Shown piece by piece: positions 128 through 40,541 of a stretch of DNA of 40,541 nt. Made by a program: the position numbers and the translations under genes. A model generated the notes under the pieces. The model saw only the letters and a program-made list of their open reading frames with translations. It did no database searches and was not told where the DNA came from. The stretch's first letter is position 1, and each line of letters starts with the position of its first letter. This DNA comes from a virus: positions 1 through 40,541 of IMG/VR virus record IMGVR_UViG_3300043609_000044. One strand, given 5' to 3'.

Positions 128-470
128 ACAGGCGGAAGGCCAGTACAGCGACGACGCCACGGATCTGGCCAACATGCCGCTTGAACAGTTCACGGACACG
201 TTGACGACCGTCGTGACCGCCTACGGTAAGAAACTGCCAACAGGCGCGCATATCGCGCTGATCCTCCAGCCGACCCAGTGGAAGGCGCCAGAGCGACAGT
301 TCACCGACCACGTCGGCGACCTCCTGCGCCGCGTCAAGCTGCCGGTCGAGATGCGCTACTCCGTGCCGTATGAAAGCCAGCAATGCACCGCGCAAATGGT
401 GGAGTGGGCCAAGGCCGAGAAGCGGTGCCTCGTCCTGACGCGCGAAATTGTGGTGTGGAGGGTGGCGTGA
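1..470 (+). CDS. C-terminal part of the ParB-N/DNA methyltransferase fusion (continues from 39613..40541)
   Basis: Frame continuous with the window end. Contains LVYLDPPYW, the DPPY motif IV of N6-adenine/N4-cytosine MTases. Stop TGA at 468-470. Confidence 0.85.
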
Positions 471-2451: not shown

Positions 2452-2735
2452 GACGCGCCGCGAAAATGGACACGTTCCACGCCACGGTACGGCAGCTCTT
2501 TCGCGTCCACGGCTGTCACTGGCGGGACACGCCACTCGGCGCCGGGTTTCCTGACGCGCTGGCGTGCTGGGGCGAACGGCTGGTGCTCCTCGAAATTAAG
2601 TCCGGCAAGAAGGCCGCGAAACGCAAAGGCAAAACCGCCGACGCGCAGAAAGACTTCGCGGACGAGTTCCCGGTACGCCGGGTGACGAACGAAGCGGACG
2701 CTTTGGAGACGATCGCATGGTTGAAACAGTTGTAG
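2448..2735 (+). CDS. VRR-NUC domain nuclease
   Basis: GFPDALACWGERLVLLEIKSGKK ... QKDF is the PD...ExK plus Q signature of VRR-NUC. GTGA-overlap start (alternative ATG at 2466). Confidence 0.8.
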   Translation: MRRAAKMDTFHATVRQLFRVHGCHWRDTPLGAGFPDALACWGERLVLLEIKSGKKAAKRKGKTADAQKDFADEFPVRRVTNEADALETIAWLKQL

Positions 2736-3400
2736 CCGCGCACGCCATGACGGACGGCCACGTCTTCGTCGAAGCCCTCGCACGGCGCCTCTGGCGGCCG
2801 GGTAGCGTGGACGTGGACGACCTGGTGCAAGACGGCTTGATCGGCCTCATGGACGCGGCCCGACGCTTCGACCCAGCGCGCGGGATCGCCTTCGACACCT
2901 TCGCCTACGCACGGGTCCGGGGGGCCATGATCGACAACTGGCGCCGAGCGTCCTGGCCGAGATCGATACGCCGCGCGCGCCGGGAGCTGGCCGCCGCACG
3001 CGTCCTGTTGCGCCAGGAGTTAGGAGCCGAGCCGACGGTGACGGAACTCGCCATGCGGACGGGACGGCCAGTGGTGAATGTCACGCGTCTCCTGCAGCGG
3101 ATCGGCCATATAGAGCAGCCTGATCCGCCGCCACCGGTCCCCACGCCAGACGTGCTCTACGCCGAGGACGAAACCCGCTCGCGGGTCCGGCGCGCCGTGG
3201 CGGCGCTGCCCGCCCGCGAGCGCCAAGTGGTGCAGGCGTACTATTTCACCGAAATGCGTCAGGCGCGTCTGAGCGCGGTCATGGGGATCACGCCTGGCCG
3301 CATCTCGCAGTTGCATACGCGGGCGCTCGGGCGTCTGCGCGCGGCCCTCACCGTTCCGCCGGAAGGTCTGGCGGCGGTCGTTCCTCCGAGTCTTGACTGA
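2717..3400 (+). CDS. Sigma-70 family RNA polymerase sigma factor (group 3/FliA-like architecture)
   Basis: Region 2: DLVQDGLIGLMDAARRFDPARGIAFDTFAYARVRGAMID. Region 4 HTH: LPARERQVVQAYYFTEMRQARLSAVMGITPGRISQLHTRALGRLR. Confidence 0.85.
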   Translation: MVETVVAAHAMTDGHVFVEALARRLWRPGSVDVDDLVQDGLIGLMDAARRFDPARGIAFDTFAYARVRGAMIDNWRRASWPRSIRRARRELAAARVLLRQELGAEPTVTELAMRTGRPVVNVTRLLQRIGHIEQPDPPPPVPTPDVLYAEDETRSRVRRAVAALPARERQVVQAYYFTEMRQARLSAVMGITPGRISQLHTRALGRLRAALTVPPEGLAAVVPPSLD

Positions 3401-19519: not shown

Positions 19520-19557
19520 GTGCGCCAGATATAGGCCAAGTGTCAAATTATTGACAC
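19520..19557 (-). promoter_or_regulatory. Late-operon head element, copy 1 (TGTCAA-N4-TTGACACTTGG-N7-CTG-N4-AC on minus strand)
   Basis: Inverted repeat GTGTCAA-atta-TTGACAC at 19540-19557. 17 of 21 core positions are identical to the copy at 25955-25992. Confidence 0.5.
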
Positions 19558-22321: not shown

Positions 22322-24327
22322 TAGCGTCCTCCTCCTATGGAATGGGAAAGTGCGTGCTGGTTGAGCGGCGGCTGTAACTGTGCGCTGCCGGGGTGGTGCG
22401 TGTCTGGCGGCTGTTGGCCGGGGATCGGCGGCGCCAACGGCTGGGTCGGCGTCTGCGCGGCGTTTAACAGCAACTCCGGGTGGCCGAGTTCGAGCGCCAA
22501 TGTCTGTTTCAGCGCATTCGGGTCGATCTGGAACCCGCTCTGTTGGAGCAGCGACACCACCATGGGGTTCGTCAGATCCTCGGCCTTGAAACTCAGCGAA
22601 ATGCGCGGCTTTTCCTGCGGCGGCGGCGGCGGATCTTGCAGGTGCCGCGTGGGATCTTCCCCGAAGGCGGCGTAGACGTCCTTCAACCCCTCTTTGCGAT
22701 CGTTGTACGGATCGTTGGCCGTGAGCTGGTAGCGGTCGAGCGCCATTTTCCGTTCAGCCTGCTGATCGAGGCGTTTGGCGCTGTCGGGTTTGACGCCGTA
22801 GACGAATTTGCCGGGGACGGACAGCTTATTCCACGCCTGCAGTTGTTTCGCGCCGTTTTGGCCGGCAATTTCGACGTAGCCCAGATCGTCCTCGAAGAGT
22901 TGAATGAGGCCGCCGAGCGCGGACACGATACTGACGAACCAGCGGAGCACCTTGTCGCGTTCCTTGTCGAGGCGAATATCCGTCGCCTGGTTCATGTAGT
23001 TCAACTCCGTCGCCGTCTTGCTGCCTTGCTCGGTAATGCCGGACTGGTTCTGGCCGAGCGCCCAGGCGCGATCGATATCGCGCATGGAAATGTCGGACGC
23101 GACGGACGTATCGCGCGGCAGCGTCGGGAGCGCGATCATTTCAATGAGTTCGTGCGGGGGGCCGTCGGTGAGGATGATCGACTGGACTTCGCCCTGTTCC
23201 AACTTCGCGATCGTCGCCGGATCAATGCGGTTCCTGTCCACGCCGCGCATGGGGAGCGCACGCCGTTTCTGCTGCATTTGGATCGTGCGCGTCTGGCTGA
23301 GTTCGTCCACGGCTGGCCGGGACATTTGGCAGTCGGACTTCGGGAAATGGCTGTCGGGGGTGTACCGGAGCGTGAGTACCTTGATCGGGAAGCCCTCGAC
23401 GCCAATGAGCGCGCCGGACTGCGGATCGACGCGCTGATACGGGGAATTCTCGTGCACGCGCGGGGTGTCTTCGTCTTCGACCAGGATCAGGTGCCGGACG
23501 AGGCGGCGATCGGTGACGGACGGATCGCAGCGATAGGCCCAGTACCAAATTTCCGTGACGGCCTTGCCGGGCCGGCCGACGTGGGTTTTGGACGTGTCGC
23601 AGAGCAGATCTTCGTCGTACCGGGAACCCTGATCCGTCGCTGGGGGGTGGACGTCGCTGAGACTGGCCAGTTCTTCGTCGCCGACGAACGAGCGAAAGCC
23701 CAGCCAGTCGGCCTGCTGATAGTTGGAGCGGATGAAGCCGCTCGGGACCAGCAGCTTGGCCGGGCTCCCGCGCTCAATATAGTAGCAACTGTGGCTGACC
23801 GTCGGCGCTTCTCCCAGCATGGCCGGCGGCGTGACGGACGCCGTGTAGCCGACCTTCACCCAGGCCACCCCGGCGGGACAGATCACGTCACTCAGGCATT
23901 CGTCCACGGCGGACAGCGCGTCGGTGTCGTCGGGGCCGAGTTTCTGGTTGAGCACGGCGTTGAAGATGGGGACGGCGGCGGCGCTTTCGGGGTTTTTGGC
24001 CGAGAGGACGACTTCCGGCACCTTATAGAAGAGCTGCGCCTTCTTCTGTTCGGTCTTCTCGTAGTCGATATTGACCTGCGTCGTCTCTTTCAACTCGAAG
24101 CCGTACGCGTGCTGATACCCACCCGTGTAGCGTTTGAGGTTTTCGCGCCAGTGGGGGAGTTCTTTCTTCAGTTCTTCGCGCGCCGAGGCAATTTCCCCGC
24201 GCCAGAACGTCAGCGACCCCACGCCGTCTTCCGGCAGCGGGAGGTGGAGCGGATCAGGCGGCGCGAGTTCGGGTGTGACCTGATCTGTCATACCGGCCGC
24301 GAGGGGATCGTCAAGGAGTTCAGGCAT
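22321..24327 (-). CDS. Portal protein
   Basis: 668 aa. Its start overlaps the terminase stop by 8 nt. Assigned by size and position between TerL and scaffold. Confidence 0.75.
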   Translation of the reverse strand: MPELLDDPLAAGMTDQVTPELAPPDPLHLPLPEDGVGSLTFWRGEIASAREELKKELPHWRENLKRYTGGYQHAYGFELKETTQVNIDYEKTEQKKAQLFYKVPEVVLSAKNPESAAAVPIFNAVLNQKLGPDDTDALSAVDECLSDVICPAGVAWVKVGYTASVTPPAMLGEAPTVSHSCYYIERGSPAKLLVPSGFIRSNYQQADWLGFRSFVGDEELASLSDVHPPATDQGSRYDEDLLCDTSKTHVGRPGKAVTEIWYWAYRCDPSVTDRRLVRHLILVEDEDTPRVHENSPYQRVDPQSGALIGVEGFPIKVLTLRYTPDSHFPKSDCQMSRPAVDELSQTRTIQMQQKRRALPMRGVDRNRIDPATIAKLEQGEVQSIILTDGPPHELIEMIALPTLPRDTSVASDISMRDIDRAWALGQNQSGITEQGSKTATELNYMNQATDIRLDKERDKVLRWFVSIVSALGGLIQLFEDDLGYVEIAGQNGAKQLQAWNKLSVPGKFVYGVKPDSAKRLDQQAERKMALDRYQLTANDPYNDRKEGLKDVYAAFGEDPTRHLQDPPPPPQEKPRISLSFKAEDLTNPMVVSLLQQSGFQIDPNALKQTLALELGHPELLLNAAQTPTQPLAPPIPGQQPPDTHHPGSAQLQPPLNQHALSHSIGGGR

Positions 24328-25981
24328 GGGCGGATCTCAGCGCGTGGTCGCGCAGTTGCTGAATGTCGTAGGCCACGGACCCCTTGACGGGACGATCGTC
24401 TCGGGTGTGACGCGTCGGAGAGGGACGACTGAGGCTCATATACCTGAGCATGTCGCTCCCGTGATCGTCGCCGTCGGTGTTCACGTCGTCGGCGTCGTGC
24501 GTGGACTGTTCCTGGATCGGCAGCGTGCGAATGAGATATTGGCAGCTCGGATCAAAGGTGAGCCACGGCGTGCCGTCAGGGGCCGCGCGCAACAGGTCAT
24601 GCACGTTCGCCCAGCCGTTTTTGCCGCGCTGGTTATCGGCCTTCCGCATGGGGAGGCCGGCGCTTCGGAAGGTTTCGACAATGGCCTTGCCGTGATCCTG
24701 GCCGGTTTTGTTCCACATGGACGGATCGGCGGCGCAGTAGCGTAAGCGGCCCGTCCCGACGAGTCGGCGTGTCGTGTCCATCATCTTCGCCGCGACGACG
24801 TCCGGTGTGGTTTGGGTGCCTTTCAGTTCACGCGCCATGTGGATGTGGCCGTCAGGCAGGCACGCGAACCAGCCCACGCAGTACGGTTGGTTGAACCCCC
24901 AGTCCATGGCGGCGATCCACTCGGTACCTGGCGGCACGTACTTCTCAGCGACGTGCCACGGCTGGCCATTCTGGAACGTCTTGAATTGAAAGAACGATCC
25001 TTCAAACACGCTCCAGTCGCCTTCCAGCAACTGCGATCGGCGCGGTTCCGGCATTTGATCCAGGTTGTCGCGGTAGGTGAGATCGACGTAGGGGTTGTCG
25101 TCCACCTTCGCTTGCACAAAGGTGTGCCACTCGGGTTTGAATTTGGGGTACTTGTCTTTGTCCGGTTGCTTCGTGATGAAGAAGTCGCGCACCCAGAGCG
25201 CGCCACGCGGGCCGGGGTTACTGGCGGCCCAGACTTTCGGCCCGCCGAGTTTCGCCACGACGTCCGGGTTCGACGTGCGCGCGCGACTGAACAGTTCGAT
25301 CATGTCGCCTTCGTCGTAGGTGACGAGTTCGTCGGGGACGATGACGTCGTATTCGCGCGAGAGGTAGCCTTCTTTCGCGACTTTGTCGTCCATGTGGCCG
25401 CCGACGATGGTGCTGCCGGTTTGCGGGAAATACATGCGGCGTTCGCCGCGGTTGTATTTCGCGCCGAAGAGCGGCGCGTCCCGTTCGAGGTGGAGGAGGT
25501 GCGTTTCTTCGAGATCTTTGTAGTTGGCGCGGATGATGATCGTGGAGAGGCGCCGCACACTCAGGCAGACGCGGTACAGGCCCCAGCGGAGAACGTGGCT
25601 TTTGGCGCCGCCGGCCGCGCCGCCGTAGAGGGTGCGGACGAATTGCCGTTGTGCGCGGAAGAATTCGACCTGGCGGGGCGTCGGGAGGAACACCTGGCGC
25701 TTCGTGTCGCCGACGGTGATCGCGATCCCCCACGCATATTGCTGCGCCGCGCACGCGGGGGTCGGACATTCCCACTGGCCCGAGGGAATTTGCGTGAAGT
25801 GCCGGCCGCACCAGCAGCAAGTGGCGTGCGGGTGCGACACCAAGGGGTTCGCGACGTGCGGTTCGGGCGGCAGGTTCGGCGGCGGCACCTGCGGCGCGGG
25901 GGGAACGGGCGGTTTCCAGCCCTTTTTGTGACGACCGGACCCCGTGCCTCCCACGTCGCACAGTCTACCCCCAAGTGTCAA
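24320..25981 (-). CDS. terL: Terminase large subunit with N-terminal zinc-ribbon extension
   Basis: Walker A YGGAAGGAKSH, Walker B YDVIVPDELV, C-terminal nuclease-like acidic residues. N-terminus CCWCGRHF...CPTPAC. The TTG start is uncertain. Confidence 0.9.
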   Translation of the reverse strand: MTLGGRLCDVGGTGSGRHKKGWKPPVPPAPQVPPPNLPPEPHVANPLVSHPHATCCWCGRHFTQIPSGQWECPTPACAAQQYAWGIAITVGDTKRQVFLPTPRQVEFFRAQRQFVRTLYGGAAGGAKSHVLRWGLYRVCLSVRRLSTIIIRANYKDLEETHLLHLERDAPLFGAKYNRGERRMYFPQTGSTIVGGHMDDKVAKEGYLSREYDVIVPDELVTYDEGDMIELFSRARTSNPDVVAKLGGPKVWAASNPGPRGALWVRDFFITKQPDKDKYPKFKPEWHTFVQAKVDDNPYVDLTYRDNLDQMPEPRRSQLLEGDWSVFEGSFFQFKTFQNGQPWHVAEKYVPPGTEWIAAMDWGFNQPYCVGWFACLPDGHIHMARELKGTQTTPDVVAAKMMDTTRRLVGTGRLRYCAADPSMWNKTGQDHGKAIVETFRSAGLPMRKADNQRGKNGWANVHDLLRAAPDGTPWLTFDPSCQYLIRTLPIQEQSTHDADDVNTDGDDHGSDMLRYMSLSRPSPTRHTRDDRPVKGSVAYDIQQLRDHALRSAHA

Positions 25982-25992
25982 GACTTTGACAG
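25955..25992 (-). promoter_or_regulatory. Late-operon head element, copy 2
   Basis: TGTCAA-gact-TTGACA at 25976-25991. On the minus strand it reads TGTCAAAGTCTTGACACTTGG...CTG....AC and overlaps the annotated TTG start of terL. Confidence 0.5.
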
Positions 25993-26027
25993 CGACAGCC
26001 GCGCGAGACGTTCGCTATCATGCGGCC

Positions 26028-26369
26028 ATGGCCGTGATGGTGGAGGAACTCTATGAAGCCCTGCGGTTAGCGGGGGTGCAGGACGGGGCCGCGAAAACGG
26101 CGGCCCGGGCCGTGCTCGGGGCCGATGCCCGCCACGATCTAGCGACGAAGACGGACGTGGCCGACCTGCGCGCGGACGTGGCCGACCTGAAAGCGGATCT
26201 GGCCGGGTTGCGGATCGCGACGAAAGGCGATCTGGCCGAAGTGCGCGCCTTGATGAAAGCGGATCTGTTGGACATGAAGGCGGATCTCTTGAAGTGGCAC
26301 GTCGGGACGCTCTTGGCGATCACGGCGATCTATGGTGGCCTCGTGTCGCTGCTGAAGCTGTTTGGCTGA
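26028..26369 (+). CDS. DUF1640-like coiled-coil protein with C-terminal TM
   Basis: Repeated DLATKTDVADLRADVADLKADLAGL heptads, then a hydrophobic tail LLAITAIYGGLVSLLKLF. Confidence 0.65.
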   Translation: MAVMVEELYEALRLAGVQDGAAKTAARAVLGADARHDLATKTDVADLRADVADLKADLAGLRIATKGDLAEVRALMKADLLDMKADLLKWHVGTLLAITAIYGGLVSLLKLFG

Positions 26370-26622
26370 AATGATGCTCGAACGGCGTCTCACGGTGCTG
26401 ACGTGGATGATGGGCGTCCTCCTGGTGCTCACCGCCACGACGCTGTGGCTCACGATCACGATCGCGGATCGTCTGCCTCACGTGGACGAGATGCGTGACG
26501 GCAGTGCGCTGTTTGTGATGTACGGCCCCGCGCTGATCTGGTGGCTGATCTTTCTCAAGCTCATGCGGGACGACAAACGACGCGCGGAGGCGCGACGACG
26601 TGACGAACAACGACGCGCTTGA
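26362..26622 (+). CDS. Two-TM membrane protein with basic C-terminus
   Basis: Two hydrophobic helices, then DDKRRAEARRRDEQRRA. Overlaps both neighbours. Confidence 0.6.
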   Translation: MAEMMLERRLTVLTWMMGVLLVLTATTLWLTITIADRLPHVDEMRDGSALFVMYGPALIWWLIFLKLMRDDKRRAEARRRDEQRRA

Positions 26623-26782
26623 ACGCCGTCTCGCCAAACACGCCGATCAACTCGCCGACCTCGAAGCCGAGATCGCGCGTCTCAAACAGCGCCATGACGC
26701 GGATCGGCAGACGTTCGTGGACGCGATCGGCACGACCGGCGGGAAAGCCACCGTGGCGACCACGAAGAAGAAGACGCCATGA
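26600..26782 (+). CDS. Small coiled-coil protein
   Basis: GTG start. LADLEAEIARLKQRH. Confidence 0.5.
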   Translation: MTNNDALERRLAKHADQLADLEAEIARLKQRHDADRQTFVDAIGTTGGKATVATTKKKTP

Positions 26783-27120
26783 CGGACGTGCCCGCGCAGG
26801 CGTTTCGGGAGGCGGCAGCGAAGGCGCAGTTAGCAGCGGCCAGATGTCGAGAGAGCAAGCGGTACTACGAAGAAACCTTGTGGAATGAACAGGCTGTGTT
26901 GCTCCTCGCCGCCGCCGAGCAGCGCGAGCAGCTCGACGCCGTGATGTACAGCGACGACCAGGTGATCACGGCGCTCCGCGCCGAGCGCGACCAGGCGCGC
27001 ACCGAGATCGCGCAGGCCGTGGCCACGATCCACGCCACCCCCCTCTACTGGTCGCAGGACGCGCTCATGGACGTCCTCGACATTCTCGCCCCCAACGACG
27101 CCCACCCGTCAACCCTTTGA
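26779..27120 (+). CDS. Hypothetical helical protein
   Basis: ATGA overlap with the upstream stop. Confidence 0.55.
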   Translation: MTDVPAQAFREAAAKAQLAAARCRESKRYYEETLWNEQAVLLLAAAEQREQLDAVMYSDDQVITALRAERDQARTEIAQAVATIHATPLYWSQDALMDVLDILAPNDAHPSTL

Positions 27121-27230
27121 CAGGTTCGCCAAAATAGGCTAGCCTGAAGCCAAGCGACAGCCACCCACCCTCCTGAAGTACAAGATCAAGATCTTCCGGC
27201 ACCTAGACGACGCGAACACCCGGTAGGGTT

Positions 27231-27372
27231 GAGCGTCGGCACGACCCTCCCCCGGGCATTGCTGCGGAGCAGCAAACTTCAGCGCGCACGGCTGCGCGGG
27301 GGGTAAGTGCCGCGCGTGGCGCGGCACGGGTAAAGCCCCCGCCGCGCCGGCCCAGCGCGTCGTCCGACGCTC
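27231..27372. ncRNA. Candidate structured RNA (closing helix plus three hairpins), family unknown
   Basis: 27231-27245 pairs with 27359-27372 (14 bp, one bulge). Perfect hairpins at 27259-27275, 27283-27298 and 27307-27327. No credible ORF. Confidence 0.35.
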
Positions 27373-27551
27373 TTGACCTTCGTTCCGTTCCGTTCTTCTC
27401 AGGTGTCAAAAAAAAACACCCACCCCCGTCTCGTCCCTGCCGCGTCCGCTAACGCGTCCGCCGCAGGCACCCCCCTCCGTGACTTAGGCATAGAGAAACT
27501 ATGCCTTCGCTCACACGGACCAGACGGCGCTCCTAAGAGCGTCGGCTGGCG

Positions 27552-27593
27552 CACACCCTGACCTGAATATCCAAACCCGGCACACACCCTGAC
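27552..27593. repeat. Two direct repeats CACACCCTGAC spaced 31 bp (iteron-like)
   Basis: Copies at 27552-27562 and 27583-27593. The second lies in a GGCAC...GTGCC hairpin. Confidence 0.5.
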
Positions 27594-27679
27594 GTGCCAA
27601 GGCCGGGGCCCGTGGGGCCCTGGCCGGGGGCCGTCCGCCGGGACGGCGGCCGGCGTGCGCACGAGCACGCGCGCTGCGC

Positions 27680-27720
27680 GTCAGAGTAGAAGAGAGTGCC
27701 TACTCTCTTCCTACTCTGAC
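27680..27720. terminator. Long hairpin (18 bp, one bulge, GCCT loop) at a convergent junction
   Basis: GTCAGAGTAGAAGAGAGT-gcct-ACTCTCTTC(C)TACTCTGAC. No U-tract, so its role as a bidirectional terminator is inferred. Confidence 0.45.
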
Positions 27721-27775
27721 TCCGTCTGATAATGGTCGTTATGCTTACACTGTCGAACCCTCGGAAACCCTTGCT

Positions 27776-28282
27776 CTATATGGGTTCGTGAGGGATGGCA
27801 GGTAGTAACGCGGGGTTATGTGTGCTGTCGGGGAGGGTATTCACGTCGATACTCTGCGTGCTATGCGTCTGGCGCATGGCTACCACGTCGCCAGAACCCA
27901 CAATGACCGTCACCCCTTGGTTCTGGGGGTCGGGTGCAACGACACCAACGGCGATGAGTGCATCCCGCATCGGACGGTGTTCGCCGCGCTTGGCCGCTTT
28001 GTCGAAGCTGCGAACCCAGTGTTCCGCGGCAAGGTGAGCATTCGCTTTCAGGACACCAAGGGCCGTGGTCGTCGTGGGTTCGCTGCGTCGAAGGATATCG
28101 ACGACGCGTTGATGGCTAAGTTTGACGATACGCGCGATTTCCGACGTGGACACGCCTTGGAGCTGGAGGCGGAGGACATGGATGACTTCGAGGCTAGAGA
28201 TACGCGTGTAGGGTTTGCGGGACGGCGGACGCTTGGTGCCGTATTTACCGCGATCTTCGCGTGTCTCGCTTGCCGCTTCCAC
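27776..28282 (-). CDS. HTH DNA-binding protein (regulator; small-terminase-like possibility not excluded)
   Basis: LQGVSTSEIARIVKLSHQRVVDILRR is a helix-turn-helix. GTG start. Confidence 0.65.
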   Translation of the reverse strand: MEAASETREDRGKYGTKRPPSRKPYTRISSLEVIHVLRLQLQGVSTSEIARIVKLSHQRVVDILRRSEPTTTTALGVLKANAHLAAEHWVRSFDKAAKRGEHRPMRDALIAVGVVAPDPQNQGVTVIVGSGDVVAMRQTHSTQSIDVNTLPDSTHNPALLPAIPHEPI

Positions 28283-28334
28283 GCGTGCATTGTCGCACGG
28301 GTCAAGTTTTTTTTCGTCTCGTCGTCTAAACCCC

Positions 28335-28371
28335 TTGACATCCTATAGACGCTGTCTGTAAGATGTCTGTA
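28335..28371 (+). promoter_or_regulatory. Sigma-70-like promoter with tandem TGTCTGTA repeats (early small-gene operon)
   Basis: TTGACA (28335-28340), 18-nt spacer, TAAGAT (28359-28364). TGTCTGTA at 28353 and 28364 overlaps the -10. A candidate divergent promoter lies on the opposite strand. Confidence 0.4.
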
Positions 28372-28423
28372 TTGGATGCATGGTGCATTCAGTGAACGCC
28401 TGATGACGGGCAAGGGGTTTGAG

Positions 28424-28771
28424 ATGACGAAGACGACGACGAAGCTGCAGTGCTGGAATTGCATTGGGGATGGCTGTTCCGCGTGCGGGTATCAGACGCC
28501 ACGGGTCGAGGCTATGACGCGGTTGACCATGAAGGACGACGGCGTGAACGCGATCGACTTGGGCGTTATTGGGCCGTGGCAATACGCCGTGGACTTCATG
28601 GGGACGACGGCGGCGAACGTTTGGCGCCGGACAGCGGCAGAGGCGGGGACGTATGGCGGTTGGCGGTTTGAATGTGGTTCACATGTGCCGGGACAGTATC
28701 GGCAGCTCCCGGAGTTCGTGGCGCTCGCGTGTCGGTTGGACGACGCGATCGGCTGGATACGTCAGCAGTAG
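28424..28771 (+). CDS. Small Cys-rich hypothetical protein
   Basis: CWNCIGDGCSACGY zinc-ribbon-like motif. Start uncertain (28376, 28403 or 28424). Confidence 0.55.
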   Translation: MTKTTTKLQCWNCIGDGCSACGYQTPRVEAMTRLTMKDDGVNAIDLGVIGPWQYAVDFMGTTAANVWRRTAAEAGTYGGWRFECGSHVPGQYRQLPEFVALACRLDDAIGWIRQQ

Positions 28772-33057: not shown

Positions 33058-34128
33058 TCAGGCCCCCTTCTTGATCGGCGTCTTAACGAGGCGCATAGTG
33101 GGCGTCGGTGCGGGAGGCGTGACAGCCGGCGGAAACGCCGCATCCAGCGCCGACTTGGCCCGTGTGCTGGCCGCCGCCCGACTGTACCGCCATGTCTGCT
33201 GCGGCGAGGTGTGGAGGGCCAGTTCGGCCGCCCCCCGTTCATCGGCCGAGTTCTCAACGACGGTCGTGATGAACCGGTGGCGCAAATCGTACACGCGAAA
33301 CCGACGCACGCCAGCCTTGTCGCAGGCGCGGTGCAGGAGGCTGTGGAGCGCGGAGCCGCTAAACGCGCCCCAGGCGTTCACGTCCCGAAACATCTCCAAG
33401 GCGGTCACGGCCGCCGGACTCACCGGGACCGTGCGCGGCCTCGTGCCGCCGCCTTTCTTCCGTCCCGGCGTGGTCACCGTGGAGGTGCGCCAGTGAATAT
33501 CCTGGGGCCGCAGGCGCTTGAGCACCGCACTCGGCCAGCCGGTGGTGAACAACACGTGGAGACGCGCCTGGCTCTTGCTCGGCCCCTTCTTCAACTGCCG
33601 CAGCGCACCAAAGGCGGCCCGCACCACCTCCGGTTCGGGTAAATCAAGCGGGAGTTCTTCCTCGTGATACTTCGGCACGCCTCGTGCGGGGTTCAGGCCC
33701 TCACGGCCGTTAAACACCGTGTAGAAATCCATCAATGCCGTGCGATAGACATTCAGGGTGCCGGGTTTCTTGCCGGACTTGCGGAGAGCTTCCAAGTGCT
33801 GACGGACTTCTACACTCGTCACGCTGTCGAGGGTCCGCTGCCGCCCAAGCCGATCTCGCCACCATTCAATCCGATGCATCCGGTCGATCAGCGTCGGCAT
33901 CCCGGCTTTGGCTTTCTCATACGCTTTCACTTTCCCGCCAAACGTCAACGCCTTCTCAACTTCCGAGACAATGCCGACTTGCGCATTCGCGCGGAGGGTC
34001 TTTAACTCCTCGCGGAGCACCTGGATCGAGGTGTCGCCGGAGAAATTCTTGGAGACGAACTCGCCTTTGACGCGGGCATAAATTTGATACCCCGTCCCTT
34101 GACGGCGAATGCCTTTAGCAATCTTCAT
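33058..34128 (-). CDS. int: Tyrosine recombinase / phage integrase
   Basis: YDLRHRFITT and LALHTSPQQTWRYS (box II H-x-x-R and catalytic Y). N-terminal SAM-like domain. Start MKIAKG preceded by AGGAG. Confidence 0.9.
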   Translation of the reverse strand: MKIAKGIRRQGTGYQIYARVKGEFVSKNFSGDTSIQVLREELKTLRANAQVGIVSEVEKALTFGGKVKAYEKAKAGMPTLIDRMHRIEWWRDRLGRQRTLDSVTSVEVRQHLEALRKSGKKPGTLNVYRTALMDFYTVFNGREGLNPARGVPKYHEEELPLDLPEPEVVRAAFGALRQLKKGPSKSQARLHVLFTTGWPSAVLKRLRPQDIHWRTSTVTTPGRKKGGGTRPRTVPVSPAAVTALEMFRDVNAWGAFSGSALHSLLHRACDKAGVRRFRVYDLRHRFITTVVENSADERGAAELALHTSPQQTWRYSRAAASTRAKSALDAAFPPAVTPPAPTPTMRLVKTPIKKGA

Positions 34129-34257
34129 TGGTGTACACACTCCTGGCAGTTGCTTTCCGCTACTGTCTGTTGTCGAAGGGAAAAGGGTTATCCAGTCTTC
34201 TTGGCAGTCTTGAGGGACCACCGCATCAGGGCCGCCAGGGCGGCGGCTTGGGTCGTC

Positions 34258-34722
34258 TTAGGCCGTTTTCGTACTTTGCGGGTGTGCAAACTTTGAATCT
34301 GGAGATCGATGAATTTTGCGTCGCTTGGACTGACTGCGCGAATCTCGTTCAATTGCTGTATTGAAACTATTGAACACTTCAGCGCGCGCCGCCGGCTCAA
34401 GGTGTTCAGTGGCGAGGAGAGCGACATCGATAAACGCTTGATGGAGCGCTTTGAAGAGCGAGCTACGAGCGAGAGCTGAGCCATGTCGCCGGCCTTTCTC
34501 TAGAGGCAGCACCTGATCTGGGAGCAGAAACAGTTCTGCGACCGAGAGACCGAGCACCACTGCGATGGCGTCCAATTTATCGAGATGGGGTGTGGCGTCC
34601 CCACTCACCCAGGCGCTGACCGTTGACGGGTCCACCCCGGCCTCACGCGCGAGCGCAGCGGACGCCCCACGGCGCGCTCGAAGTTCCAAAAACCTAAGCT
34701 GCAACACGTCCTGTGCGGTCAT
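34258..34722 (-). CDS. CI-like XRE-family repressor (no S24 peptidase domain seen)
   Basis: ALAREAGVDPSTVSAWVSGDATPHLDKLDAIAVVLG. Divergent from the Cro-like gene. Confidence 0.7.
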   Translation of the reverse strand: MTAQDVLQLRFLELRARRGASAALAREAGVDPSTVSAWVSGDATPHLDKLDAIAVVLGLSVAELFLLPDQVLPLEKGRRHGSALARSSLFKALHQAFIDVALLATEHLEPAARAEVFNSFNTAIERDSRSQSKRRKIHRSPDSKFAHPQSTKTA

Positions 34723-37834: not shown

Positions 37835-38306
37835 CGCTGAAGTCCTGCTCACCGAAATTCGAGACGCGCTGGTCGAACTCGTCTCGCTGTCGAAGGTGAA
37901 ACCCAATATCCTGCCGCCCGGCGTCAAACCCACCGTCGCCTGGTCGGCGCACGAGAAAACGATCGCCAGCGACCACGAACTCGATCACCCGACGTATGGC
38001 GACCCGGTCGTGAAAAGTGCGCCCCGTGACTGGAATGGCCCCTTCGTCCCCGGCGCCAAAATGAGCGAGCACCCAGCCGAATTCCTCGACCTGCTGGCCG
38101 ACCGCTACGACTACTTCGCCACGAAGAACGATCGGGAAAAGGCCGTCACCGAGAAGGGGTACCCCAAGTCGAAATTCGATCGGGCTGCTGCCGCCAAGGC
38201 GCGCGGCTGGGCCGCCCGCATTCGCAAAGGCTACAAACCGCCGGCCCCGCCGCCCATGGATGACGAGACGCCGGACTGGGGTATGGCAAATGAGCCGCCG
38301 TTCTGA
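37824..38306 (+). CDS. Hypothetical protein
   Basis: GTG 37824 (or 37812), overlapping the upstream stop. 160 aa. Confidence 0.55.
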   Translation: MASNAEVLLTEIRDALVELVSLSKVKPNILPPGVKPTVAWSAHEKTIASDHELDHPTYGDPVVKSAPRDWNGPFVPGAKMSEHPAEFLDLLADRYDYFATKNDREKAVTEKGYPKSKFDRAAAAKARGWAARIRKGYKPPAPPPMDDETPDWGMANEPPF

Positions 38307-39063
38307 TCGCGCTTACTACAACGAGTTTGATCCGCACGCCGCCGCGTGGCTGCGCGCACTGATCGACGCCGACGCGATCATGGCGGGAGACGTGGACGAA
38401 AGGTCGATCGAGGATGTCCGAGCAGTTGACCTTCTGGGATACGTCCGCTGCCACTTCTTCGCCGGTATTGGCGGGTGGGACTACGCCTTGCGCCTCGCGG
38501 GATGGCCTGGCGATCAACCCGTGTGGACCGGCAGTGCCCCTTGTCAGCCCTTTAGTGACGCCGGCGAGCAGCAGGGCGCGGACGACGTGCGTCACCTCTG
38601 GCCGGTATGGTTCGGGCTCATTCGCGAGTGTCGCCCTCACGTCGTCTTTGGCGAACAGGTTGCGGCAGCAATGCGGTACGGCTGGCTCGACGCTCTTTCG
38701 ACAGACCTGGAAGCGGCAGGGTACGCCGTGGGGGCGGTGGTGCTGGGCGCACACAGCGTGGGGGCGCCCCACCTCCGACAGCGGCTCTATTTTGTGGCAG
38801 ACCATTCCCGGCCCCACACCGACCGCCGTGAAGCCCACGGGGGGGATCTCGGTGTGCCGGTTCGGCGGCTCGGGCGCGAGACGGACCATGAAGCACTTCC
38901 TGACGCACCGGGAACTCTATGGGCCGATCAACCCCGCCCTCCTGTCGTACTTGATGGGGTTTCCGCCAGTGTGGGAGAAGTCTGCGGCTACGGCAACGCG
39001 ATCATGCCGCACGTCGCGGCGGAAGTAATTCGCGCTTATATGGCCGTGGAGGCCACCCCATGA
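38290..39063 (+). CDS. DNA (cytosine-5) methyltransferase, short phage type
   Basis: HFFAGIGGW (motif I), SAPCQPFS (IV), FGEQV (VI variant), GAPHLRQRLYFVA (VIII), GYGNAI (X). Confidence 0.85.
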   Translation: MSRRSDRAYYNEFDPHAAAWLRALIDADAIMAGDVDERSIEDVRAVDLLGYVRCHFFAGIGGWDYALRLAGWPGDQPVWTGSAPCQPFSDAGEQQGADDVRHLWPVWFGLIRECRPHVVFGEQVAAAMRYGWLDALSTDLEAAGYAVGAVVLGAHSVGAPHLRQRLYFVADHSRPHTDRREAHGGDLGVPVRRLGRETDHEALPDAPGTLWADQPRPPVVLDGVSASVGEVCGYGNAIMPHVAAEVIRAYMAVEATP

Positions 39064-39616: not shown

Positions 39617-40541
39617 CGGACACACGCGCCGTTGAGAGCATTGTCTTTCGTGCCGATCTCTATCCTCGGATGGAGACGAGCGCCACGACGGTGCAGAAAT
39701 ATGCCGAGGATCTGGCTGTTCTCCCGCCGATCGAGATCAATCAACATGACGAACTGATCGACGGCTGGCACCGCTGGACGGCGCACCGGAAAACTAAAGC
39801 CGCGACGATCCCTGTGGTCGTCACGACAACCAGCGGCGAGGCGGAATTTCTCGAACTCGCCATTACGCGCAATGCGGCGCACGGCATGCAACTGTCCCAG
39901 GACGACAAGCGCGACATGGCCAGGCGCATCTACGGCGCAACCCCAGAACGCGAACGAGACGCCAAGAAGAAGGCGCTGGCGACCATTCTGAGCGTCAGCG
40001 ACCGCACAGTCCGCGAGTGGTTGAGCCGAGTGGATAAGGATGCTAAGGAAGCCAGGGACCAGAAAATCTTTGACCTCTGGTTGGCGTGCTCGACCCAGCA
40101 GGAAATTGCATCAGCAACGGGTATTGATCAAGGTGATCTGAGCCGCTTGGTTGCGACTTTTATGGAAATCGGCAACCTTGCCAAAAACCATAAAGCTACA
40201 GCCGAGCACGCGACGGACTTCGACCCCCCGCTCTACAACGTCTGGAAACAGCAGACCCGCACCGTCGGCAGCGCGCACTTTGGCAACTCCGAGGCGCGAT
40301 GGCTCGACAACCTGCTCTATCTCTACACCACGCCATTTGACGTGGTGATCGACCCCTTCGCTGGAGGCGGGTCCACCATTGACCTCTGCCAAAAGCGGTT
40401 CCGCCGGTATTTGGTGAGCGACCGGTTGCCCATCATTGAACGCGCCAAGGAGATCCGCCACCACGACGTCACCACCGGCCCCCTAAAGCCGCCGCAGTGG
40501 GGCGACGTGCGCCTGGTCTATCTCGACCCGCCGTACTGGAA
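39613..40541 (+). CDS. ParB-N (nuclease-like) domain fused to N6/N4 DNA methyltransferase, N-terminal part; continues at 1..470
   Basis: My own translation from GTG 39613 (GTGA overlap): IEINQHDELIDGWHRWTAH (ParB-like), an HTH-like middle, then VIDPFAGGGST (motif I). The ORF track omits it because the window ends before a stop. Confidence 0.85.
   Translation, partial: MTDTRAVESIVFRADLYPRMETSATTVQKYAEDLAVLPPIEINQHDELIDGWHRWTAHRKTKAATIPVVVTTTSGEAEFLELAITRNAAHGMQLSQDDKRDMARRIYGATPERERDAKKKALATILSVSDRTVREWLSRVDKDAKEARDQKIFDLWLACSTQQEIASATGIDQGDLSRLVATFMEIGNLAKNHKATAEHATDFDPPLYNVWKQQTRTVGSAHFGNSEARWLDNLLYLYTTPFDVVIDPFAGGGSTIDLCQKRFRRYLVSDRLPIIERAKEIRHHDVTTGPLKPPQWGDVRLVYLDPPYW
40415..40541. repeat. 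Terminal overlap, identical to 1-127
   Basis: Same as above. Confidence 0.95.

Follow-up and report, generated by a model that had tools for sequence, protein, structure and literature searches.

Small RNAs that are made from a promoter of their own and serve no open reading frame are known from phages, an example being the short transcript from PR' of lambda, called StxS in Stx phages. RNA-based immunity is provided by the CI RNA of P4 (seqA/seqC) and by the c4 RNA of P1, and in the Actinobacteria the 6C RNA (RF01066) and other C-rich small RNAs pair with G-rich ribosome-binding sites. We compared these and related systems with a non-coding element in a stretch of DNA of 40,541 nucleotides, positions 1 to 40,541 of the IMG/VR record IMGVR_UViG_3300043609_000044, hereafter called the window. 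An initial annotation had described positions 27231-27372 as a compact, multi-branched RNA fold. Our analysis places this region in the middle of a self-contained plus strand non-coding unit at approximately 27117-27470, and the comparisons presented here point to a real, conserved and structured element that is probably transcribed. The best reading of the unit is a phage small regulatory RNA, in which our confidence stands at about the halfway mark. Its features, in window coordinates, are as follows:

27107-27122: palindrome CGTCAA-CCCT-TTGACA, the right arm of which is the -35 hexamer
27117-27145, plus strand: promoter P(+), with -35 TTGACA at 27117-27122, a 17-nt spacer and -10 TAGCCT at 27140-27145
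27161-27174, plus strand: pyrimidine-rich leader CCACCCACCCTCCT
27182-27195, plus strand: leader palindrome AAGATC-AA-GATCTT
27206-27240, plus strand: hairpin P1
27208-27213 with 27233-27238: outer helix of P1, extended by G27206-C27240 across a conserved A.G mismatch
27218-27221 with 27226-27229: inner helix of P1, ACCC with GGGT
27241-27258, plus strand: C-rich linker ACGACCCTCCCCCGGGCA
27259-27275, plus strand: hairpin H1 (hairpin 1 of the initial annotation), TTGCTGC-gga-GCAGCAA, a 7-bp stem with a GGA loop
27280-27372, plus strand: variable GC-rich 3' domain of type A, holding hairpins 2 and 3 and the 3' strand of the closing helix
27283-27298: hairpin 2, CGCGCA-cggc-TGCGCG
27307-27327: hairpin 3, GTGCCGCGC-gtg-GCGCGGCAC
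27231-27245 with 27359-27372: closing helix, GAGCGTCGGCACGAC with GTCGTCCGACGCTC, 14 bp with one bulged C
27367-27374, plus strand: ACGCTCTT box, ACGCTCT-like
27378-27397, plus strand: pentamer repeat CTTCG-TTCCG-TTCCG-TTCTT
27373-27470, plus strand: C-rich, G-poor tail, resembling a Rho-loading site
27402-27420, plus strand: small hairpin in the tail, GGTGT-A9-ACACC
27417-27427, plus strand: CACCCACCCCC in the tail

The likeness to the lambda PR' transcript and StxS lies in a promoter of the sigma-70 type, a short, structured, non-coding transcript (here predicted), a temperate phage and a location between gene modules, but the element has no similarity to them in sequence or structure, no Q/qut context and no canonical terminator, and the late genes are on the other strand. 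Like 6C RNA, it combines stable hairpins with an invariant run of about six C that could pair with G-rich targets. Its C-run (27248-27253), however, is located in the linker between P1 and H1, whereas those of 6C RNA are in hairpin loops, and the RF01066 model gave no match even at E <= 10. The 6S RNA model gave no match, and the predicted fold of the element is branched rather than a long rod with a central bubble. Two conserved hairpins downstream of a promoter and a boxA-like CGCTCTT recall HK022 put, lambda nut and rrn boxA, but here the nearest co-oriented gene is more than 1 kb away, the motifs differ in their order and spacing and the tail is rut-like. With the immunity systems of P4 and P1 the element shares a structured RNA of which one strand recurs further downstream in the transcript; this repeat is, however, not conserved, and an ordinary CI-type repressor is encoded beside the integrase. 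The tail of approximately 80-100 nt, which is C-rich, G-poor, weakly structured and placed after a structured domain, is similar to a rut site, but a regular array of pentamers and an elaborate structured domain ahead of it would be atypical of one.

Rfam 15 gave no match for the whole window at gathering thresholds and nothing for the element of three related phages (L094, L105 and L106), and a tRNA/tmRNA search was likewise negative. The search for known phage RNAs that had been proposed with the original fold yielded only chance matches over 27050-27850 at E <= 10, the best being RsmV with 17.8 bits against a threshold of 100. The element resembles phage small RNAs with orphan promoters, C-rich small RNAs such as 6C and put/nut leaders, yet by the criteria that could be tested it appears to be outside each of these groups.

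The window is a JGI metagenome contig of 64% G+C from a temperate tailed phage. The same 127 nt stand at both of its ends (1-127 and 40415-40541) as an exact direct repeat, which identifies it as a complete circular assembly of a genome of approximately 40,414 bp, cut inside a gene. The following genes are relevant to the element:

2717-3400, plus strand: phage-encoded sigma factor of the sigma-70 family, with regions 2, 3 and 4 (Pfam E = 2e-18)
24320-25981, minus strand: large terminase, heading the structural genes
25944-27120, plus strand: cassette of four small genes, flanking the gap upstream
27776-28282, minus strand: 168-aa HTH gene, the convergent flank of the gap
33058-34722: integrase and CI-type repressor

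The terminase is approximately 30% identical to those of the closest GenBank phages, and a DNA similarity search against 50,697 GenBank phages gave no match. Prophage copies, sought by DNA pattern and protein profile, were absent from 185,579 reference genomes, so that recognition of the promoter by the host is assumed. Some of the conserved promoter-like motifs of this genome may be read by the phage sigma factor rather than by that of the host. At its N terminus, the ORF of the terminase large subunit is extended by a segment containing a Cys-rich motif similar to a zinc ribbon (CCWCGRHF...ECPTPAC; 25800-25981, minus strand), and no separate small terminase was recognised adjoining this gene. 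The phage also encodes a C5 cytosine methyltransferase (38260-39063, plus strand), and the whole window contains 334 GATC sites, compared with the approximately 134 that we estimate from base composition.

The element is located in a 655-nt non-coding gap (27121-27775) that separates two convergent units. The gap is enriched in repeats, with nine exact inverted 9-mer pairs where 1.6 were expected from shuffles and four exact direct 10-mer pairs where 0.55 were expected. In the window, the gene directly upstream of the element encodes a 113-aa protein, which matched only itself when used as a query for more homologues. On the other side, the 168-aa HTH protein is one of a family of 17, all metagenomic, that have the invariant core KRGEHRPMRDAL...GVVAPD. 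Its function, examined using Pfam, PHROGs, PDB, AlphaFold and Foldseek, could be described only as that of a generic HTH protein, the structural model being poor (pLDDT 59.6). In two contigs, L090 and L091, the HTH gene adjoins an integrase and a DUF3987 primase-like gene and is found without the element.

Homologous gaps were recovered from contigs carrying proteins of the HTH family and by one DNA-pattern scan. Eight further distinct homologues were obtained (L002, which represents L077-L084; L086; L087; L088; L089, which represents L096/L097; L094; L105; and L106), giving nine distinct sequences with that of the window, all from one small clade of uncultivated soil phages known from metagenomes. 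Pattern scans of IMG/VR, using the palindrome or the linker with H1, returned only chance matches apart from the same clade. The element is always present among the homologues, in one copy per genome, while the flanking genes vary: the upstream cassette is replaced between phages with the element retained, and in two lineages (L001/L002 and L089) a gene for a 161-aa HNH endonuclease, absent from the window and the others, lies between the element and the rest of the gap (approximately 1210-1695 in L001/L002, 4320-4805 in L077 and 4217-4702 in L089). Given its varying neighbours and constant single copy, the element behaves as a self-contained module. The HNH gene looks like a mobile homing-type insertion. 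Indels within the element, including a 40-nt insert and changes in pentamer copy number, are not multiples of three, which rules out that it is coding. Two more distant relatives, L101 and L103, have a reduced version that consists of the promoter, one hairpin, the C-run and the pentamers, and then a T-run on the plus strand. We also observed that the HNH insertion point falls exactly between the pentamer repeat and the remainder of the gap. Another related phage contig, L104, has a twister ribozyme of type P5 located among small early genes (373-430, minus strand; 42.4 bits against a gathering threshold of 37.6, E = 2e-6); the window gave no such match.

Compensatory substitutions, the mark of a structured RNA, were found in P1, which starts upstream of the region in the initial annotation, and in H1. 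The outer helix of P1 occurs in five haplotypes, all of them Watson-Crick paired (CGACGC/GCGTCG, CGCGTC/GACGCG, CGCCAC/GTGGCG, CCGCGC/GCGCGG and CGATGC/GCATCG), with one compensated haplotype added by L106. The stem of H1 has four fully Watson-Crick haplotypes and a fifth, in L089, with one G.G mismatch; its loop is GGA, or AGA in some homologues. Covariation was scored on an alignment of eight sequences, and the haplotype table, checked by hand, includes one further sequence. Across the outer helix of P1 and H1, 97% of the cells are paired and both sides change in 9 of the 14 pairs. The covariation score for the two helices was 0.454, compared with at most 0.107 for controls with slid partners, and none of 500 shuffles was as good.

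Contig L001, a probable error-laden assembly, was left out of the hand-checked table. It differs from L002 by 11 substitutions in approximately 50 nt (1830-1890), of which five are A-to-C or T-to-G; the substitutions destroy H1, and the odd allele is confined to this contig. The "hypervariable patch" suggested by this pair was therefore set aside. The GC-rich hairpins of the element seem hard to sequence or assemble.

In primary sequence, no part of the element is more conserved than the C-rich linker between the two hairpins. Its CCCCCGGGC does not vary, and seven of the nine homologues have (G/A)CGACC, the near-invariant pattern being (G/A)CGACC-N-CCCCCCGGGC. In the leader, AGATCNAGATCT is invariant in all eight rows of alignment A4 (seven of the nine distinct homologues), with L105 and L106 retaining just TAGATCTTC. 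An AGATC-N-AGATCT palindrome follows the leader in the shared anatomy of the homologues.

The promoter P(+) is constant in layout. TAGCCT and YTGACA are found in all nine homologues with a spacer of always 17 nt, the 5' half of which is non-conserved, and a TGN extended -10 is present in eight of the nine; hexamers 16-18 bp apart with a diverging spacer are the arrangement of a sigma-70-type promoter. Transcription is predicted to start near 27152, and the site YTGACA-N17-TAGCCT has a single occurrence in the window. A generic promoter scan did not flag P(+) because TAGCCT matches TATAAT at three of six positions (it fits TANNNT). The core of the palindrome that includes the -35 hexamer, GTCAA-N4-TTGAC, is located at the same position in seven of the nine homologues when one mismatch is allowed (GTCAG in L087) and 4 nt further upstream in L086 and L105. 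With the -35 hexamer as its right arm, this palindrome is probably a regulator-binding site. The window contains three exact copies of the core (at 19542, 25977 and 27108), within palindromes of the form (G)TGTCAA-N4-TTGACA(C):

19541-19556: upstream of a structural gene
25976-25991: in the region from which the terminase gene and the small-gene cassette diverge, with TAGACTGTG following toward the terminase
27107-27122: at P(+)

The copy on the terminase side is conserved in the relatives whose loci cover this region (L077/L078, L086, L088 and L096), and the variable cassette is bracketed by two of the copies. That P(+), the terminase region and a structural gene have this palindrome in common suggests that P(+) is controlled together with the late genes.

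The features of the originally proposed fold, that is, the closing helix, the three hairpins and a second copy of a 10-mer from the closing helix, are all present at the positions given for them. The 142 nt from 27231 to 27372 fold with -89.7 kcal/mol, compared with -71.8 +/- 4.0 kcal/mol for dinucleotide shuffles (z = -4.5, none of 200 as good). Folding of both strands, suggested at the time as a check, confirmed a strong fold for the plus strand but did not discriminate against the minus strand (reverse z = -4.4). Since both strands fold equally well, the signal comes from DNA-symmetric inverted repeats and energy picks no strand. The minimum-energy fold of the 142 nt retains hairpins 1 and 3 and the closing helix, with pair probabilities of approximately 1, but has a long-range helix in place of hairpin 2. 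In the window, a fold with the closing helix gains 7 kcal/mol over one with P1 and is dominant at equilibrium; the duplex of this helix beats 99% of shuffles. Whole-element folding in the relatives was not better than in shuffles (z from +0.3 to -2.9).

Our results support the view of a folded, RNA-like element, conserved in related phages, rather than a simple terminator or operator, and hairpin 1 keeps its pairing through compensatory changes. The 14-bp closing helix did not stand as a conserved architecture: its 5' strand, at 27233-27240, is the 3' arm of P1. A similar end-to-end helix is found only in the window and in L002, where it is built from a different, palindromic sequence, and is absent in L086, L087 and L094. 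The closing helix, which is trailed by TTGACCTTCG, is a lineage-specific stem that competes with P1. Hairpin 3 is a window-specific insertion without a counterpart in the closest relatives, L089 and L088, and hairpin 2 competes with another pairing, the type-A consensus fold being drawn from three sequences with an unreliable alignment. Helices without compensatory changes had been named as grounds for abandoning the fold; such changes maintain P1 and H1 and were not shown for the closing helix or for hairpins 2 and 3.

Three unrelated types of 3' domain are found among the homologues: type A in the window, L089 and L088; type B, near-identical in five phages; and type C in L002. All homologues have a (YTCCG)n array of 2 to 6 copies. 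The number of copies differs between near-identical genomes (five in L089, four in L098), and this variation looks like microsatellite slippage. An A/T homopolymer and a CACCCCCACCCC block end the shared anatomy. Measured in 60-nt windows, the tail contains 13-20% G and 35-57% C, and G drops likewise in every relative. From approximately +220 to +290 its resemblance to a rut site, which is C-rich, G-poor and weakly structured over some 70 nt or more, is one of composition only. A scan of 26500-28500 for intrinsic terminators (a hairpin with a T-run) found none within 27121-27775 on either strand.

The 10-mer GAGCGTCGGC has two occurrences in the whole window, at 27231 and 27537. The second, together with a neighbouring conserved unit, is located in the other half of the gap:

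27537-27546, plus strand: second copy of GAGCGTCGGC, within the hairpin region 27525-27546
27596-27756, minus strand: neighbouring conserved unit, separate from the element
27601-27654: GC-rich double hairpin of this unit
27680-27720: 18-bp hairpin/palindrome AGAGAGT-N4-ACTCTCT (z = -4.9)
27756-27729, minus strand: convergent promoter-like site TCGACA-N16-CATTAT

As had been described, the second copy lies in a hairpin of its own, of 8 bp (27525-27532 with 27537-27544) with one G-T pair (27527/27542). The further proposal that it provides 27362-27372 with an alternative partner, as in a switch, was not borne out, since the identity of the 10-mers is unique to the window and is not conserved. 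The corresponding short stems in relatives (ACGCT/AGCGT in L001/L002 and CACT/AGTG in L088) do not match the arm of P1, and in two lineages the whole HNH gene separates the two sites. Given the repeat enrichment of the gap, one exact 10-mer repeat is within chance and unremarkable alone. A riboswitch or attenuator would call for a co-oriented ORF and a conserved alternative partner; there is no such ORF before 28376, and the partner is not conserved. For the other half of the gap, which also contains direct repeats of GGCRCACACCCTGAC, at 27548 and 27579, and GCGTCCGCC boxes, possible roles are those of a further non-coding unit or of a site for regulation or packaging.

A promoter that faces a conserved, co-varying fold without an ORF makes a plus strand non-coding RNA gene the best supported interpretation. 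The orientation of the promoter points to the plus strand, and two weak cues are the G-T pair in P1 of L086 and L105, which would be A-C on the other strand, and the G-poor, C-rich tail of every homologue. Watson-Crick covariation is strand-symmetric, and the same pattern could arise from single-stranded DNA hairpins or from template-switch repair of inverted repeats. Since the palindrome is also found upstream of the terminase gene, part of the region may have a regulatory role purely at the level of DNA.

Several other explanations were weighed against a regulatory RNA. The hairpins and tail could be a passive 3' end or insulator that terminates the plus strand operon of the cassette (25944-27120) and the opposite units, with no functional separate RNA. 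The location between convergent transcription units, the equal folding of both strands and the rut-like tail would suit this role, as would the start of the element a few nt past the HNH stop codon in the HNH lineages; yet we find it rather unlikely in view of the precisely conserved promoter at the 5' edge of the element and of a linker and type-B 3' domain whose sequences are conserved well beyond the needs of a terminator. It is also at odds with the lack of a hairpin-plus-T-run terminator in 27146-27400 and with the persistence of the element where the upstream cassette has been swapped between phages. A site that acts as DNA, with repeats, pentamers and homopolymer bound or extruded for packaging (cos/pac), replication or a regulator, is in our judgement unlikely. 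Such a site would be well placed in a gap with the HTH gene (plus, in some lineages, HNH) on one side and the terminase gene on the other, one that abounds in direct and inverted repeats and shares palindromes with the terminase promoter region, and three contigs, independent of one another, terminate within the element or beside it (the end of L080, the start of L098/L116 and the end of L121). However, the three ends do not coincide, the cut of another contig from the same phage lies elsewhere, and that of the window, a circular assembly, is inside a gene; the contig ends look like breaks of assembly at GC-rich hairpins, and a cos site deduced from them was rejected for the differing break points and the same-phage assemblies cut elsewhere. 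Arms that change freely with compensation and loops that differ fit a fold better than a protein-binding site, and the promoter is left unexplained.

We consider it decidedly unlikely that the RNA is the leader of a processive antitermination system, staying on the polymerase and reading antisense across the 168-aa gene into the plus strand genes from 28376. Two conserved hairpins without an ORF behind a strong promoter that is probably regulated, with long runs of plus strand genes downstream, are compatible with such a leader, and the box ACGCTCTT (27367-27374) and its type-B equivalent CGCTCTTT resemble CGCUCUUU, the core consensus of boxA. But an antisense gene and 1.2 kb (1.7 kb with HNH) separate the element from the first co-oriented ORF, the downstream plus strand block has a TTGACA-N18-TAAGAT promoter of its own, the boxA-like match extends over 7-8 nt and is degenerate in L088, L089 and L002, and a rut-like tail argues for termination. 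The original model of a closed 140-nt multi-branched RNA (27231-27372), in which 27362-27372 re-pairs with 27537-27546, appears very improbable. It draws on the dominance of the closing helix in the window (probability approximately 1, 7 kcal/mol over the P1 fold), on a duplex better than 99% of shuffles and on the exactness of the 10-mer, but this helix is missing from L086, L087 and L094 and takes its 5' strand from the conserved P1, and the second 10-mer is not conserved as a copy, is cut off by an intervening HNH gene in two lineages and, as a single exact repeat, is within chance for the gap.

In the regulatory RNA that we favor, the sigma-70-type promoter TTGACA-N17-TAGCCT would drive the unit, with its -35 hexamer inside a predicted palindromic protein-binding site. 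The RNA would be approximately 230-330 nt long and would have a core of P1, the invariant C-rich single-stranded linker and H1 with its GGA loop, followed by a GC-rich 3' domain that is exchanged between lineages. P1 would form first during transcription, and the main effect of the closing helix in the window would be a more stable 3' end. The (YUCCG)n repeat and the C-rich, G-poor tail would most likely load Rho, and the Rho stop would precede collision with the convergent gene. The stable hairpins may protect the RNA and present the C-rich linker or leader to G-rich targets or to a protein. The conservation of the unit, the geometry of its promoter, the covariation in P1 and H1 and the composition of the tail are observed; transcription itself, the 3' end of the RNA, the part played by Rho and the target of the RNA are what we infer from the sequence in this scheme. 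No targets complementary to the linker or the repeat were found above chance in the phage genome.

The element could also represent an undescribed class of phage non-coding RNA that has a fixed core, swappable 3' modules and the operator of the terminase promoter, and that acts in trans on a host factor. Such an RNA might soak up Rho or an RNA-binding protein on its (YUCCG)n tail, or mask G-rich ribosome-binding sites, while the phage sigma factor takes over transcription. We offer this combination, taken as a whole, as a tentative possibility.

New candidate RNA motifs are common, and the present family is small. If expressed, the element would be a new phage RNA family from a lineage without cultured relatives. 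Its design is modular, a conserved core being combined with 3' domains that can be exchanged and with a pentamer array that varies, and the unit is compact and clearly delimited, with promoter, operator, RNA and tail within approximately 350 nt. It may show how a temperate phage with its own sigma factor uses RNA to act on convergent transcription or on host factors.
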